From contig JAZQOA010000072.1 in NCBI GenBank assembly GCA_045627605.1, positions 28,005 through 92,004 of the forward strand: a stretch of DNA of 64,000 nt. Direction: 5' to 3'. The position numbers and the translations under genes were made by a program. Below are positions 464 to 39,502 of the stretch, piece after piece (positions within the stretch are counted from its first letter, which is position 1; every line of letters starts with the position of its first letter). A model generated the notes under the pieces. That model made no database searches. It saw only the letters and a program-made list of their open reading frames with translations, and was not told the DNA's origin. The DNA is from Kiritimatiellia bacterium. Lineage in GTDB: Bacteria; Verrucomicrobiota; Kiritimatiellia; RFP12; JAAYLN01.

Positions 464-1261
464 ATGAATCTCCTCGTTCGCACAACGCCTGTCCAGGGCT
501 ACAACAAGATTTTCGACGTGGGCGAATACGGCATGAAGCTCACGAAGTTTGGCCTTCTCCACCTCGCCAAGGGAACCGAGTTCAAGGATGACACGGGCGA
601 GATGGAAGTTGCGCTTGTCCTTGTCGGCGGCAACTTCGCCGCGAAAGGCGACGGGTGGGCGTTTGAGGTCGCGGACGGTCGCAAGAGCCCGTTCACGGGG
701 AAGCCCCATTGCCTCTATCTCCCGCGCCATACGGCCTACGCGATTTCCGCGACGACGGACGTCGAGCTCGCCTTCAACGCCTCGCCCGCGACGCGCGACA
801 CCGCCCGCCCGACGTTGATCAAGCCCGAGGACACCCGCCACATTGCGCTTGGCAAGGACAATTGGACGCGAACCTCCGAAATCATCCTCGACGAGAAGTT
901 CGACTCCGAGCACTTCTATATCGGCGAGGGCATGATCCCCTCCGGCAATTGGTCCGGCTACCCGAGCCACCGGCACGACGTCAACAATCCGCCGACTGAG
1001 CTCGACATGGAGGAGACCTACTTCTACCTCTTCGACCCGCCCTGTGGCTTCGGATTCCAAAGCGTGTACCAGCCCGACGGCTCGCTCAACGAAGCCTACC
1101 GGGTGCAGAACTACGACACCGTCGCGATTGCCCAGGGCTACCACCCGCTCGTCGGGGCGCCCGGCTACCAGATGTACTACCTCTGGACGATGGCCGGCGC
1201 ACAGGGGCGGGGGCTCATCTCGTCCATGGATCCCGCGCATGCGTGGGTGAAGAATGGTTAA
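464..1261 (+). CDS. iolB: 5-deoxy-glucuronate isomerase (IolB)
   Basis: 265 aa with an ATG start. The C-terminal half matches my recollection of B. subtilis IolB (GNWSGYPSHRHD, EETYFY, GYHP, YYLW, DPAHAW). The last codons and stop (AAT GGT TAA) lie inside the left TIR of the adjacent element. Confidence 0.85.
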   Translation: MNLLVRTTPVQGYNKIFDVGEYGMKLTKFGLLHLAKGTEFKDDTGEMEVALVLVGGNFAAKGDGWAFEVADGRKSPFTGKPHCLYLPRHTAYAISATTDVELAFNASPATRDTARPTLIKPEDTRHIALGKDNWTRTSEIILDEKFDSEHFYIGEGMIPSGNWSGYPSHRHDVNNPPTELDMEETYFYLFDPPCGFGFQSVYQPDGSLNEAYRVQNYDTVAIAQGYHPLVGAPGYQMYYLWTMAGAQGRGLISSMDPAHAWVKNG

Positions 1262-1774
1262 ATGGTTAAATGGTTAAATTGCGCAGAGCGCTTTAAATCG
1301 CGCAGGGTGCTTTAAGTTGCACAGAGTGCTTTAAGTTTTCGGGAGCGGGTGATGACGGACGTTGGAAGGGAGCTAAGCGCACGTAGTTTTGACTTTGCCT
1401 TGCGCATTGTGAAGTTGGCGCAGGACCTTTCCGGCGGGAAGGGTGAAAATGTGCTGTCGAGACAAGTTCTGCGAAGCGGGACGAGCATCGGGGCAAATTT
1501 GCGCGAATCGATTTTCGCCCAATCGACGGCGGATTTTGTCTCGAAGTTGAGCATTGCCTTGAAGGAAGCGTCTGAAACGCAGTATTGGCTTGAACTTCTT
1601 CATGCGGCTGGTTATCTTGAAGAGGGGGGAGTTCGTCTCGCTCAAGGACGATGTCGACTGGCTCGTTGGAACGCTCGTAAATGTTGTCAAGACCAACAAG
1701 CGCAAACTCAACCGCCAATAACCCTCAATTTAACCATTTAACCATTTAACTTTTTAACTTTTTAACCATTCAAC
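1256..1774. mobile_element. TIR-bounded AT-rich element carrying a four-helix-bundle protein gene (IVS-like cassette)
   Basis: GTTAAATGGTTAAATGGTTAAAT at 1257-1279 and its exact reverse complement at 1728-1750, followed by degenerate TTTTTAAC copies to 1774. Three internal 18-19-nt units (TGCGCAGAGCGCTTTAAA type) at 1280-1335. AT-rich relative to the flanks. Confidence 0.65.
1352..1721 (+). pseudogene. four-helix-bundle protein (PF05635/TIGR02436-like, '23S rRNA intervening sequence protein'), disrupted by a +1 frameshift at a G6 run
   Basis: ATG at 1352 preceded by GGGAG. The N-terminal 90 aa fit the family pattern (SIGANLRES, LKEASETQYWLELL). After GGGGGG (1624-1629) the family-typical C-terminus EGEFVSLKDDVDWLVGTLVNVVKTNKRKLNRQ* is read only if one G is removed, giving a stop at 1719-1721. 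The as-sequenced frame instead runs on to 1741. Confidence 0.75.
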
Positions 1775-1778
1775 TCCC

Positions 1779-3512
1779 ATGTACTTGCTTGGCATAGACT
1801 TTGGCACGGGCGGATGCAAGGTGACGGCCGTCGATTACGAGGGCCGCCTTGTCGGCGACGCCTCCGTTGAATACGCGACCTATCACGAGCATCCCGGCTG
1901 GAGCGAGCAGGAGCCTTCCGACTGGTACGCGGCGATGTGCCAGGCGCTCGCCAAACTCGCCGCCAAGGGCGTCCGTCTCTCCGAGGTCGCCGCGCTCGCG
2001 CTCGACGGCTCCACGCACAACGCCGTGCTTCTCGGCCGCGACATGCGCCCCCTCCGCCGCACGATCATGTGGACTGACCAGCGCAGCACCGGGGAGTGCG
2101 CCTGGCTCCGCCGTGAAAAGGGCGATGAAATTTTCGCGACCTGCTACCAGATGCCTGCTCCGACCTGGACCTTGCCGCAGCTCATGTGGCTCAAGGCGCA
2201 CGAGCCCGAAGTCCTGGAACAGACGGCGCACGTCCTCTTTGTCAAGGACTACGTCCGCTTCCTCCTGACGGGGCATGTGGCGACGGACTACATCGAGGCG
2301 CAAGGCACGTTGATGTGCGACGTTAAATGGTTAAATAGCCCTACGGGCATTAAATGGTTAAATGGCCCTTCGGGCGTTAAAGAGTTAAATGGCCCTACGG
2401 GCGTTAAAGAGTTAAATGCGGCTTCGCCGTTGAATTTAAAGGCCTCTGGCCGATTTAACAATTTAACCTCTTATTGGGATTCCGATCTTGTCCAATTGTC
2501 AGGCTTGAAGATGTCCGCCATGCCGGAAATCATCAGGCCGACAGACGTTGTCGGCGGAGTGACTGCCGCAGCTTCTGCACAAACGGGGATTCCCGAAGGG
2601 ACGCCGGTTGTCTGCGGCACCAGCGACAGCGCCGTCGAGGACTATGGCGCGGGCGCCGTCGAGCCGGGCGACCTCATCATCAAGCTCGCCACGGCCGGCA
2701 ATGTCAACTCAATGACCGCCGCGCCGCATCCGCATCCAAAGACGCTCACCTACGCCCATGTCGTGCCGGGGATGTGGTACAGTGTGAGCGCCACCAACGC
2801 CGCGGCGCTTTGCCAGCGCTGGATGCGCGACACTTTTTTTGTTAAATGGTTAAATGGCCCTACGGGCATTAAAGAGTTAAATAGCCCTACGGGCATTAAA
2901 GAGTTAAATGCGGCTTCGCCGTTGAATTTAAAGGCCGCAGGCCGATTTAACAATTTAAAGCAATGCGATTTAACTTCTTACGAGGTGATGGATGCCGAAG
3001 CCGCGCAGTCGCCCATTGGCGCGGGAGGGGTGATGTTCCACCCGTACCTCCAGGGCGAGCGCTGCCCGTATTGGGATGCTAATCTCCGCGCCTCGTTTAC
3101 GGGCGTTTCGATTTCGTCGTCGCGCGGCGATTTTTGCCGTGCGCTTCTCGAAGGCGTGGCCTTCTCGTTGCGCGACTGCTACGGCACCCTTGAGGAGATG
3201 GGGCTTCCCGTCTCGCGCATTTTCCTGATTGGCGGAGGCGCGAAGTCCGCGCTCTGGAGCGAGATCGTCTGCAACGTCTTTGGCAAGCCCGTCGCAGTGC
3301 CCGCGCCTGCCGACGCCTCATTTGGCGCGGCGCTTCTGGCGGGCGTTGGCACGGGCGTCTTCGCAGACGCCAAGGCCGCCGTCGCCCAGTGCCTGCACAT
3401 CGCGCGGCGCATCGAGCCGGTGGCGGAGTCCGTCCGGGCCTATGACGCGCTCTACGCCCGCTACAAGGCCGTGCACGATGCCCTCGCGCCGGTTTATTCC
3501 GAAAGCAAATGA
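1779..3512 (+). CDS. xylB: FGGY-family carbohydrate kinase (xylulokinase-like) carrying two in-frame repeat-element insertions
   Basis: 577 aa. N-terminus MYLLGIDFGTGGCKV, then PGWSEQEPSDWY, TDQRS, GTSDS and LIGGGAKS motifs of FGGY kinases. It is about 90 aa longer than typical family members because of two AT-rich insertions. Confidence 0.75.
   Translation: MYLLGIDFGTGGCKVTAVDYEGRLVGDASVEYATYHEHPGWSEQEPSDWYAAMCQALAKLAAKGVRLSEVAALALDGSTHNAVLLGRDMRPLRRTIMWTDQRSTGECAWLRREKGDEIFATCYQMPAPTWTLPQLMWLKAHEPEVLEQTAHVLFVKDYVRFLLTGHVATDYIEAQGTLMCDVKWLNSPTGIKWLNGPSGVKELNGPTGVKELNAASPLNLKASGRFNNLTSYWDSDLVQLSGLKMSAMPEIIRPTDVVGGVTAAASAQTGIPEGTPVVCGTSDSAVEDYGAGAVEPGDLIIKLATAGNVNSMTAAPHPHPKTLTYAHVVPGMWYSVSATNAAALCQRWMRDTFFVKWLNGPTGIKELNSPTGIKELNAASPLNLKAAGRFNNLKQCDLTSYEVMDAEAAQSPIGAGGVMFHPYLQGERCPYWDANLRASFTGVSISSSRGDFCRALLEGVAFSLRDCYGTLEEMGLPVSRIFLIGGGAKSALWSEIVCNVFGKPVAVPAPADASFGAALLAGVGTGVFADAKAAVAQCLHIARRIEPVAESVRAYDALYARYKAVHDALAPVYSESK
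2322..2474 (+). mobile_element. MITE-like (ORF-less) derivative A of the 1256-1774 element family, in frame inside the kinase gene
   Basis: Left end GTTAAATGGTTAAAT (2322-2336). Right end ATTTAACAATTTAAC (2453-2467) pairs with it at 14/15 positions as an inverted repeat. The interior is five roughly 23-27-nt units, each a TTAAA-type block plus an 11-nt GC mini-hairpin (GCCCTACGGGC and similar). Translated as VKWLNSPTG-IKWLNGPSG-VKELNGPTG... Boundaries are +/-10 nt. Confidence 0.7.
2841..2981 (+). mobile_element. MITE-like (ORF-less) derivative B of the same family, in frame inside the kinase gene
   Basis: Same left end GTTAAATGGTTAAAT (2841-2855) and same unit order as copy A, with one fewer GCCC hairpin unit. 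Right end ATTTAACAATTTAAA...ATTTAAC (2945-2974). Same orientation and codon phase as copy A. Confidence 0.7.
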
Positions 3513-22907: not shown

Positions 22908-22955
22908 GTCCTTCTGGGAAACGACGCATTGCAATATCCCGCCCGCGTCAGGGGA

Positions 22956-23015
22956 GGTTGTAGGTTGAAGGTTGTAGGTTGAAGGTTGGAGGTTGAAGGT
23001 TGAAGGTTGGAGGTG
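22956..23015. repeat. heptamer tandem array (GGTTGNA) x ~8.5
   Basis: GGTTGTA GGTTGAA GGTTGTA GGTTGAA GGTTGGA GGTTGAA GGTTGAA GGTTGGA GGTG. Confidence 0.9.
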
Positions 23016-23585
23016 CGAGTGGGGAGTAGGCATCGGTACCGCCGCGCAAAACATCGGTGCTTCTCGTCTCATGTCTCTCGTCTCATGTCTCACGCCCTCG
23101 CTCATCACATGAGGACACGAGACAAGAGACACGAGACGCAAAAGGTTCGCGCCCGGTGCCCCGCAAGAGCCAGTAGGCATCGGTACCGCCGCGCAAAACA
23201 TCGGTGCTTCTCGTCTCTTGTCTCATGTCTCACGCCCTCGCTCATCACATGAGGACACGAGACAAGAGACACGAGACGCGAAAGGTTCGCGCCCGGTGCC
23301 CCGCAAGAGCCGGTAGGCATCGGTACCGCCGCGCAAAACATCGGTGCTTCTCGTTTCTTGTCTCATGTCTCACGCCCTTGCTCATCACATGAGGACACGA
23401 GACAAGAGACACGAGACGCGAAAGGTTCCCGCCCGGTGCCCCGCAAGAGCCGGTAGGCATCGGTACCGCCGCGCAAAACATCGGTGCTTCTCGTCTCATG
23501 TCTCTCGTCTCTTGTCTCACGCCCTTGCTCATCACATGAGGACACGAGACAAGAGACACGAGACGCGAAAGGTTCGCGCCAGCTT
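23016..23585. repeat. four tandem copies of a ~140-bp unit, each with a long heptad-built hairpin
   Basis: The GTAGGCATCGGTACC landmark occurs at 23025, 23173, 23313 and 23453, giving periods of 148, 140 and 140. Units are near-identical. The example stem 23212-23231 / 23259-23278 pairs at 18/20 positions with a 27-nt loop. The last unit ends about 6 nt from the hemW stop. Confidence 0.9.
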
Positions 23586-39342: not shown

Positions 39343-39432
39343 GGATGAGGTTCCTTTTTGCTAATTGGATGAAACGCCGAAAATGATTATAGCATTTTTC
39401 AGGACGCACGCCGAGAGGCTTCGCTTCGGCTC

Positions 39433-39502
39433 GATGCTCAGATGCTCGGATGCTCGATGTTCGGATGCTCTGATGCTCGATGTTCGGATGCTCGGATGCT
39501 CT
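39433..39502. repeat. 7-8-nt tandem array (GATGCTCN) x 9 in a divergent promoter region
   Basis: GATGCTCA GATGCTCG GATGCTC GATGTTCG GATGCTCT GATGCTC GATGTTCG GATGCTCG GATGCTCT, between galM (start 39342, minus) and the SGNH gene (start 39583, plus). Confidence 0.85.

Follow-up and report, generated by a model that had tools for sequence, protein, structure and literature searches.

The stretch of DNA analysed here (the window) comprises 64,000 nucleotides of contig JAZQOA010000072.1 from a Kiritimatiellia bacterium (assembly GCA_045627605.1) and contains, close to its start, a carbohydrate kinase gene that holds two copies of a palindromic repeat element within its coding sequence. The host gene, encoding an FGGY carbohydrate kinase of the xylulokinase-like type, occupies positions 1779-3512 of the forward strand and is intact, with a single open reading frame (ORF) of 577 amino acids. 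The two repeat copies, neither of which carries a gene of its own, are read in frame with the kinase: copy A lies at 2322-2474 (forward strand, residues 182-232) and copy B at 2841-2981 (residues 355-401), in the same orientation and codon phase as copy A. The kinase matches the Pfam domains FGGY_N and FGGY_C and no other Pfam domain, while the XylB model TIGR01312 barely reaches its cut-off and does so in three separate stretches. An exact look-up of the kinase sequence returned no record.

Both copies begin with the 15-mer GTTAAATGGTTAAAT, which is found without mismatch at 2322-2336 and 2841-2855, in both cases within the ORF 1779-3512. The repeat unit measures 27 nt and consists of a 15-nt AT-rich part followed by a 12-nt GC hairpin; Tandem Repeats Finder (TRF) reports a period of 27 with 3.6 repeats in copy A and 2.6 in copy B. 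There are four 27-nt units in copy A and three in copy B, and each copy also has a 3' module. Copy A has in addition an inverted terminus at 2453-2467, whereas copy B has an additional GCAATGC-GATTTAAC module and a core that ends at 2974. The GCCC hairpin is present three times in copy A and twice in copy B. Downstream of the units, both copies share the order CGGC-TTC-GCCG, TTGAATTTAAA, GGCC hairpin and GATTTAACAATTTAA, to which copy B alone adds AGCAATGCGATTTAAC. Each copy terminates in GATTTAACAATTTAA(C/A), the inverse of its start, and the reverse complement of GTTAAATGGTTAAAT recurs at 2453-2467 (1 mismatch) and 2945-2959 (2 mismatches), so that terminal inverted repeats are present. The copies are 95% identical over 117 nt and 94.4% identical in a global alignment. 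Including the trailing TCTTAY they measure 153 and 141 nt, both multiples of 3, and without this tail 146 and 134 nt. They start 543 and 1062 nt from the kinase ATG, both on codon boundaries. Exactly one phase per orientation is free of stop codons, and the only open frames in copies A and B are the host frame and short antisense frames.

These results agree with a preliminary description of the locus, which had presented the second segment as another in-frame copy in the same orientation and phase, built in the same unit order with one GCCC hairpin fewer, of a length divisible by three when the tail is counted, and open in a single phase per orientation. It had also treated the trailing NTCTTAY as common to both copies. 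The heptamer is indeed present in both, yet it is not a general part of the element, as the intergenic copies described below lack it. The tail of copy B, TCTTAC, encodes S-Y, of which the tyrosine is conserved in the host: insert-free orthologues carry it at the second site (NLY, SAY or TSY). The last 7 nt of copy A (TCTTAT) may likewise be host sequence.

To place the two segments within the kinase family, we compared the protein with a solved xylulokinase structure and with its orthologues. The phmmer alignment to xylulokinase 5VM1 falls into three blocks that break exactly at the two segments, with query residues 182-231 standing opposite 4 residues and 350-402 opposite 9 residues of 5VM1. 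A set of 120 kinase homologues shares 61-100% identity, and those with names belong to Kiritimatiellae. Insert-free orthologues are numerous (for example P0010, P0022, P0024 and P0080). When 119 orthologues were compared with the shortest among them, internal insertions of at least 15 residues were confined to the two loops that hold copies A and B, site 1 being occupied in 16 sequences and site 2 in 50. Judged by these alignments, both segments are true insertions, missing from solved xylulokinases as well as from many orthologues, and the two sites appear to be loops in which the kinase fold tolerates additional sequence. In the AlphaFold model the kinase core is preserved, and the predicted local distance difference test score (pLDDT) falls below 50 at residues 186-229 and 359-396, such low values being limited to the inserts plus two short loops. 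Since the pLDDT within the inserts is this low, they probably form disordered loops, adding about 50 and about 47 residues to the modelled protein.

The kinase family shows further variation. Residues 161-286 of the kinase, around site 1, share 75-80% identity with the P0006-P0008 clade as against 45-62% with P0010, while the remainder is nearer to P0010, a split affinity that suggests a recombinant or mosaic gene. In the 639-residue homologue P0005 an N-terminal segment of about 140 residues is duplicated, possibly as an assembly chimera, and other lineages have, near NAVLL|..RRTIMW, a third variable site of smaller size.

Four near-identical strains, namely that of the window, P0002 (locus L019), P0003 (L020) and P0004, allowed us to follow the inserts over short distances. 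With the inserts left out, all 479 host codons are identical at the amino acid level in L019 and L020, and the host gene differs from these two by 6-7 synonymous third-position changes and no non-synonymous change, which indicates that the insert-bearing kinase is under purifying selection. Over the same four strains, copy A ranges from 45 to 77 residues and copy B from 45 to 63. All of these size differences consist of whole 27-nt units or of one 42-nt module, and the few substitutions within the inserts are located in hairpin loops. All eight strain copies are divisible by 3 in length and keep the stop-free phase. The strains also differ outside the kinase: a methyltransferase and RE_MjaI restriction gene pair at 9692-11715 of L019 is missing at the same place in L020.

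A more distant relative, P0006 (L021), with 76.6% amino acid identity in the host part, has the same repeat family at both sites. Third codon positions are 55% identical to those of L021 in the host gene, compared with 74% in copy A and 89.5% in copy B (Fisher p = 7e-6 for A and B combined), and this excess conservation ends at the insert borders. The two copies are 94% and 92% identical to each other within the two genomes but 88-90% identical between genomes, whichever sites are paired, and orthologous insert pairs are no closer than non-orthologous ones. Taken together, the third-position excess and the likeness of A and B within a genome indicate that the evolution of the inserts is not that of ordinary coding sequence passed on with the gene. 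At the level of sequence, then, the comparison reveals that A and B evolve in concert, and the inserts follow a family consensus, which could be due to conversion, re-insertion or constraint on the motifs. We also considered whether a large gene segment had recently been transferred with the inserts in it, and rejected this, as third-position identity drops to background at the insert borders.

The copies belong to a repeat family that extends beyond the kinase gene. Within the 64-kb window the 15-mer matches 13 times when as many as 2 mismatches are allowed (0 expected), and the 8-mer GGTTAAAT 9 times (0.5 expected); all motif matches are confined to 1256-2974, with none in the remaining 62 kb. 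The window thus holds three elements, all within 1.7 kb: copies A and B and the arms of a gene cassette immediately upstream of the kinase. GC hairpin clusters of the family type occur in the window only in A and B.

The cassette follows an iolB/KduI-family gene (464-1261, forward strand; Pfam PF04962), whose last codon GGT and stop codon TAA (1259-1261) fall inside the first GGTTAAAT of the array, in line with the earlier proposal that the repeat donated this stop. An iolB orthologue without the array, in L142, ends in ...VKNA* (AAC GCC TAA) and has the same length of 265 residues. The left arm of the cassette (1256-1345, forward strand) consists of three copies of GGTTAAAT followed by three 19-nt units, each a GC hairpin with TTTAAAT/TTTAAGT; TRF finds periods of 8 and 19, and no open frame spans the arm. 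The right arm (1726-1775, forward strand) is built of the 8-mers ATTTAACC / TTTTTAAC, the inverse of the left arm, with its end 4 nt upstream of the kinase start codon. The two arms are linked by a 25-nt inverted repeat without mismatch (1257-1281 and 1726-1750, 100% complementary). The window, L019 and L020 carry 3, 3 and 4 left-arm 8-mers and about 6, 5 and 10 right-arm 8-mers, respectively.

Between the arms lies a gene for a four-helix-bundle protein of the 23S_rRNA_IVP family (1349-1741, forward strand; Pfam PF05635, TIGR02436), so that the cassette comprises a PF05635 ORF between inverted repeats, whereas copies A and B have no ORF. An intact version of the IVP protein with 122 residues in L019 matches TIGR02436. 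In the window, a run of G near 1625-1630 counts six residues as against five in L019 and L020, which shifts the frame of the C-terminus; this reflects either a real pseudogene or an assembly error. The same arm architecture surrounds the IVP genes of L019, L020, L063 and L142 at different genomic positions. A limited search of the open-access literature found no description of IVP cassettes with such arms. The IVP protein being Avd-like, a diversity-generating retroelement was also considered and set aside, there being no reverse transcriptase among the neighbouring genes. The tie between the repeats and this poorly understood cassette provides a lead for further work.

To assess how widely the family is dispersed, a genome collection was scanned with the terminus and the next unit as query, giving 18 matches of which 3 were relevant; a metagenome scan gave at least 120 loci, most of them chance matches in AT-rich DNA. 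Gene-less intergenic relatives were found at two loci (L004 and L008) of a Kiritimatiellia metagenome-assembled genome (MAG), Horse_feces188, and related arrays are present in about 15 metagenome contigs among the matches listed. The repeat family is therefore dispersed DNA. With related arrays lying between genes elsewhere and the segments missing from solved xylulokinases and many orthologues, the results support the view of the preliminary description that the two segments are repeat elements at the DNA level and not a repeat of the host protein. The intergenic arrays have periods of 8, 19 or 25 nt, the intragenic units measure 27 nt and 42 nt. Three or more units of 8, 19 or 25 nt close every frame, as the intergenic arrays show, and the intragenic arrays carry two 8-mers per terminus. 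Long open frames across arrays in L119, L096, L131, L121, L039 and L063 were dismissed as GC-rich non-coding frames or as arrays just upstream of a start codon.

In 2.9 kb of family sequence we counted 62 perfect GC hairpins, compared with 4.3 in shuffled sequence; they are 11-17 nt in size, have perfect stems of 4-7 bp and use 24 different stems. Their loops are GAA, GCA or GTA on either strand in 53 of the 62 cases, that is, GNA triloops closed by C-G, a pattern that covers the window, L003-L008, L021 and L039-L143. In the left halves of A and B the GNA loop lies on the bottom strand, while the GGCC hairpin of the right half has a GCA loop on the top strand in B and a non-GNA loop (TCT) in A. 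Beside the hairpins the flank motif TTTAAAT/GATTTAAC is conserved. C-GNA-G triloops form the most stable DNA mini-hairpins and are typical of DNA rather than RNA hairpins. The loops hint at a stage of single-stranded DNA; they prove nothing. On the RNA side, a scan of 1100-3200 against Rfam gave no match at E <= 1, which rules against a known RNA family, and no promoter- or terminator-like sites were found in the inserts, so that a terminator or promoter function was rejected. Folded as RNA, the whole elements are modestly more stable than shuffled sequences (z -1.8 and -2.2), and a whole-element RNA hairpin was likewise rejected on these values.

One member of the family is instructive with regard to phase. 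In the rumen MAG RUG11483 (L003, 7440-7580) an element of the TTAAAT family stands in place of the linker between the domains of an FGE-sulfatase, normally a single protein (P0130 and P0132-P0135 cover 99-100% of the joined N- and C-terminal parts). The frames upstream and downstream of the element differ by one base and the gene is split: the upstream ORF stops within the element, and the downstream ORF (P0131, from a cluster of 49 sequences) starts at an internal ATG. As this copy is 1 nt out of phase, insertion is not intrinsically in phase. It had been suggested that the copies of the window are survivors of selection on insertion phase. Such selection is plausible given the single open phase and the out-of-phase copy in L003; the open phase of A and B by itself, however, follows by necessity from the host gene being intact.

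In the other lineages of the kinase, the same two loops are occupied in a variety of ways. The TTAAAT-type inserts have a patchy distribution when the insert-masked proteins are placed on a neighbour-joining tree, and P0010, the nearest relative of the window clade, has none. Other relatives carry the family at one site only, at site 2 in P0009 and P0013 and at site 1 in P0012. In L142 (6968-7127) site 2 holds the same TTAAAT family and site 1 a 9-nt tandem repeat; in L143 (5316-5473) a kinase loop is occupied by a GGGTTAAGT/hairpin family, in L145 site 2 contains a 17-nt inverted repeat of GTTGAA-type 7-mers, and in L144 a kinase loop contains REP-like hairpins. Unrelated repeat families in the same loops indicate that the loops were colonised more than once. 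The simplest reading is a high flux of repeats combined with very few permissive places in the kinase; active targeting of the two loops is possible. The suggestion that two hits in one gene reflect local hopping is not supported: the same loops are occupied in other species, including by unrelated repeats, A and B resemble each other most within a genome, and unit number changes among strains. Permissive loops together with expansion in place and gene conversion fit the pattern at least as well as two independent local hops, and in our judgement better.

Tandem arrays of other kinds are also found elsewhere in the window: an intergenic (AGGTTGA)x8.6 array at 22955-23014, four tandem 140-nt units with inverted 7-mer arrays (TCTCGTC... 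/ ...GACACGA) at 23025-23580, and a (GCTCGGAT)x9.5 array at 39429-39501 between two divergently oriented genes.

We propose, and consider fairly probable as a whole, that copies A and B are dispersed palindromic repeats tolerated in frame in two loops of the kinase, with selection keeping the frame and with unit changes and conversion following later. Both are members of a dispersed Kiritimatiellia family of modular palindromic repeats, in which a module is a short GC hairpin with a three-base loop beside an AT-rich TTAAAT/ATTTAAC spacer, the modules of the left half being the reverse complement of those of the right half. A and B may represent gene-less fusions of the arms of an IVP cassette, from which they would descend; their resemblance to such fusions makes them similar to MITEs (transposable elements of the miniature inverted-repeat type) or to repetitive extragenic palindromic (REP) sequences. 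Sitting in two insertion-tolerant loops, they would be transcribed and translated in their sole stop-free phase and the kinase would remain functional. The fit to the frame would result from selection and not from targeted insertion, frame-breaking copies or unit changes being lost or, where tolerated, splitting genes. The arrays would grow and shrink by whole units of 27 nt (9 codons) and 42 nt (14 codons), and gene conversion between A and B, or with other members of the family, would keep them alike. As to the mode of spread, the lack of a target-site duplication (TSD) and the GNA-type loops hint at a route through single-stranded DNA or recombination.

Several observations weigh against this proposal. 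In-frame copies were found in one host gene only, with no further in-frame intragenic copy among the roughly 15-20 family members in the matches listed. A profile of 11 insert peptides, searched against 1.84 billion cluster representatives, identified no other host protein; its matches were TPR-repeat proteins only (GKAEVLKAQGRFEEAL) and were discarded as false positives, and this negative carries little weight, since a cluster with an insert-bearing member is usually represented by another protein. The insert peptide also retrieved nothing from an index of 5.8 billion proteins, an artefact of the index, since the collection does contain the identical protein P0001. The family has no linked transposase or other mobility gene, its gene-bearing relatives carrying the IVP gene only, and no direct repeat in the manner of a TSD borders copy A, copy B, the cassette or any of the orthologous copies. 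A duplication of a TTAA target was considered and rejected: the spacing of the two TTAA, 140 nt, is not divisible by 3, and an insert of that length would not fit the frame that is preserved. That translation runs through the inserts is inferred. Finally, a selected function of the inserts would likewise be compatible with the high synonymous conservation and with the positions shared between species.

The explanation that comes closest to our proposal, and partly overlaps with it, starts from one old insertion, or one loop occupied long ago, of which non-allelic gene conversion or duplication made a second copy in the gene, with the arrays expanding in place afterwards; we regard it as possible but clearly the less probable of the two. 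If it were true, the two copies in one gene would be uninformative on hopping or target preference. It would account well for the greater likeness of A and B within a genome than of orthologous inserts between genomes, for the 3' module of copy A in L019, which has the GCA loop otherwise typical of B, and for the rapid change of unit numbers in place. It would also explain why both copies end in T-S-Y codons, which in insert-free orthologues are host sequence at site 2 and are not found at site 1. The relatives in which just one of the sites holds the family (site 2 in P0009 and P0013, site 1 in P0012) and the unrelated families in the same loops of other lineages are less easily accommodated. 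A role of the inserts for the host at the level of nucleic acid, for example as structured mRNA or DNA that tunes the stability, processing or translation of an iolB-kinase-isomerase transcript, would mean that their sequence is selected and not the frame alone. Such a role could explain third positions that are 74-90% conserved in the inserts as against 55% in the host up to the very borders, hairpin stems that covary across the family, and RNA folds of somewhat greater stability than shuffled sequences (z -1.8 and -2.2). It is nonetheless unlikely, as the unit number differs among near-identical strains, many orthologues have no insert or unrelated ones, the z-scores are modest with neither an Rfam match nor a promoter- or terminator-like site, and GNA triloops are typical of DNA and not of RNA hairpins.

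Selection could instead act on the protein, with a 9-residue repeat serving kinase function and the DNA likeness to intergenic arrays being secondary. The 9-residue periodicity (KWLNGPTGI / KELNGPTGV) and the frame held in all strains are what this would predict, but intergenic DNA and the surroundings of an unrelated gene contain the same modules, and the intergenic copies largely refute the idea. In addition, synonymous sites are more conserved than the protein, substitutions in the hairpin loops fall at first codon positions, disorder is predicted, insert-free orthologues are common, and the profile search of cluster representatives found the peptide in no other protein, all of which makes a protein-level repeat very improbable. 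Least credible of all is removal of the inserts before the mature protein is made, be it in the manner of an intron or intein or as an intervening sequence that is excised. The relation of the family to the arms of the IVP cassette brings this to mind, since the namesake of the IVP protein occurs in excised 23S rRNA intervening sequences. Yet the inserts match no intron or other RNA family, and the protein contains FGGY domains only, with no intein or Hint domain. Moreover, the eight strain copies and the orthologous copies remain multiples of 3 and stop-free despite about ten TTAAA motifs each; such upkeep of the frame counts against removal, as it would be unnecessary in a segment that is removed.

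A bolder interpretation than tolerated in-frame repeats would see in the TTAAAT-hairpin arrays and their relatives, each relative having its own terminal repeat of 7-9 nt, an undescribed class of mobile DNA centred on the IVP/Avd-like cassette and not on a transposase and spreading through GNA hairpins in single-stranded DNA. Throughout Kiritimatiellia the same two kinase loops would then be actively targeted or would repeatedly capture such elements, and the 27-nt (9-codon) module would be an adaptation to life and variation in genes. We rate this as quite improbable, somewhat below even a nucleic-acid role for the host.

The proposal of tolerated in-frame repeats would extend protein-coding palindromic repeats, best known from Rickettsia, to a free-living, GC-rich phylum of gut and rumen. 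At this locus the forces acting on such DNA are visible together, in a host gene under purifying selection, codon-compatible unit changes between near-identical strains, insert DNA that is conserved beyond the synonymous sites of the host and an out-of-phase relative that splits a gene. Two leads emerge, the different repeat families in the same two enzyme loops across lineages and the tie to the IVP cassette, and with complete genomes they could show how the elements move and whether loop insertions regularly vary protein length in these bacteria. There is also a practical side: inserts of this kind lengthen proteins and fragment domain matches, as seen here for XylB, and may mislead annotation.

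Among known systems, a number of labels can be set aside. An intein or a group I or II intron is rejected on the Pfam matches, FGGY_N and FGGY_C only, and on the Rfam scan, which returned nothing at E <= 1. The rRNA intervening sequence (IVS) of 23S rRNA genes resembles the cassette at 1256-1775 in having a PF05635 gene between inverted repeats, here 25 nt long and perfect. The cassette, however, lies between iolB and the kinase, outside rRNA genes; its arms consist of arrayed 8-mers and hairpin modules, and A and B lack an ORF, so the label does not apply. With REP sequences and bacterial interspersed mosaic elements (BIMEs), which are associated with RAYT, an IS200/IS605-like Y1 transposase, the family shares arrays of short GC hairpins beside a conserved motif, halves facing in opposite directions, many perfectly paired stems and the lack of a TSD. 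REPs differ in being imperfect palindromes of 20-40 nt with a 5' GTAG; here the hairpins measure 11-17 nt, are flanked by TTTAAAT/GATTTAAC and have no GTAG, and the present copies lie inside a gene. In view of the shorter hairpins and the missing GTAG the element is not classed as a REP. Of the features of bacterial MITEs, small size without a transposase gene and terminal inverted repeats are present, whereas a TSD and, among the relatives found, a transposase-bearing partner sharing the ends are lacking; the classical MITE label was rejected for want of a TSD and of a known transposase partner.

Closer parallels come from small palindromic or MITE insertions that are read in frame or donate stop codons, as documented for the Rickettsia palindromic elements (RPEs), the QMITEs of Coxiella and intragenic ERIC/BOX elements (PMC10969869; PMC5896051). 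QMITE1 and QMITE2 of Coxiella burnetii, as well as ERIC/BOX, overlap ORFs, donate stops or C-terminal residues and are occasionally in frame, a behaviour with which the stop donated to iolB agrees (PMC5896051; PMC10969869). Terminal inverted repeats are a further feature shared with QMITEs. Unlike the present element, for which no direct repeat was seen at the borders listed above, QMITEs have target duplications in the form of direct repeats; nor are they modular 27-nt arrays, and the present element has no promoter-like site. The RPEs (Ogata et al. 2000, 2002, as summarised in PMC10969869) are similar in several respects: they are short (about 100-150 bp) and palindromic, have no transposase, lie in frame in metabolic genes at sites compatible with the fold, and have intergenic copies too. 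According to the same summary RPEs occupy dozens of in-frame host genes, as opposed to the one found here. The present family, in addition, occurs in Kiritimatiellia, is probably unrelated in sequence, consists of tandem hairpin-plus-spacer modules that vary between strains and is linked to a four-helix-bundle cassette. The element thus appears to work like an RPE, by analogy and not by membership, and we regard it as a new example of a known phenomenon, selfish DNA inside the genes of Rickettsia and other bacteria, rather than as a new principle.

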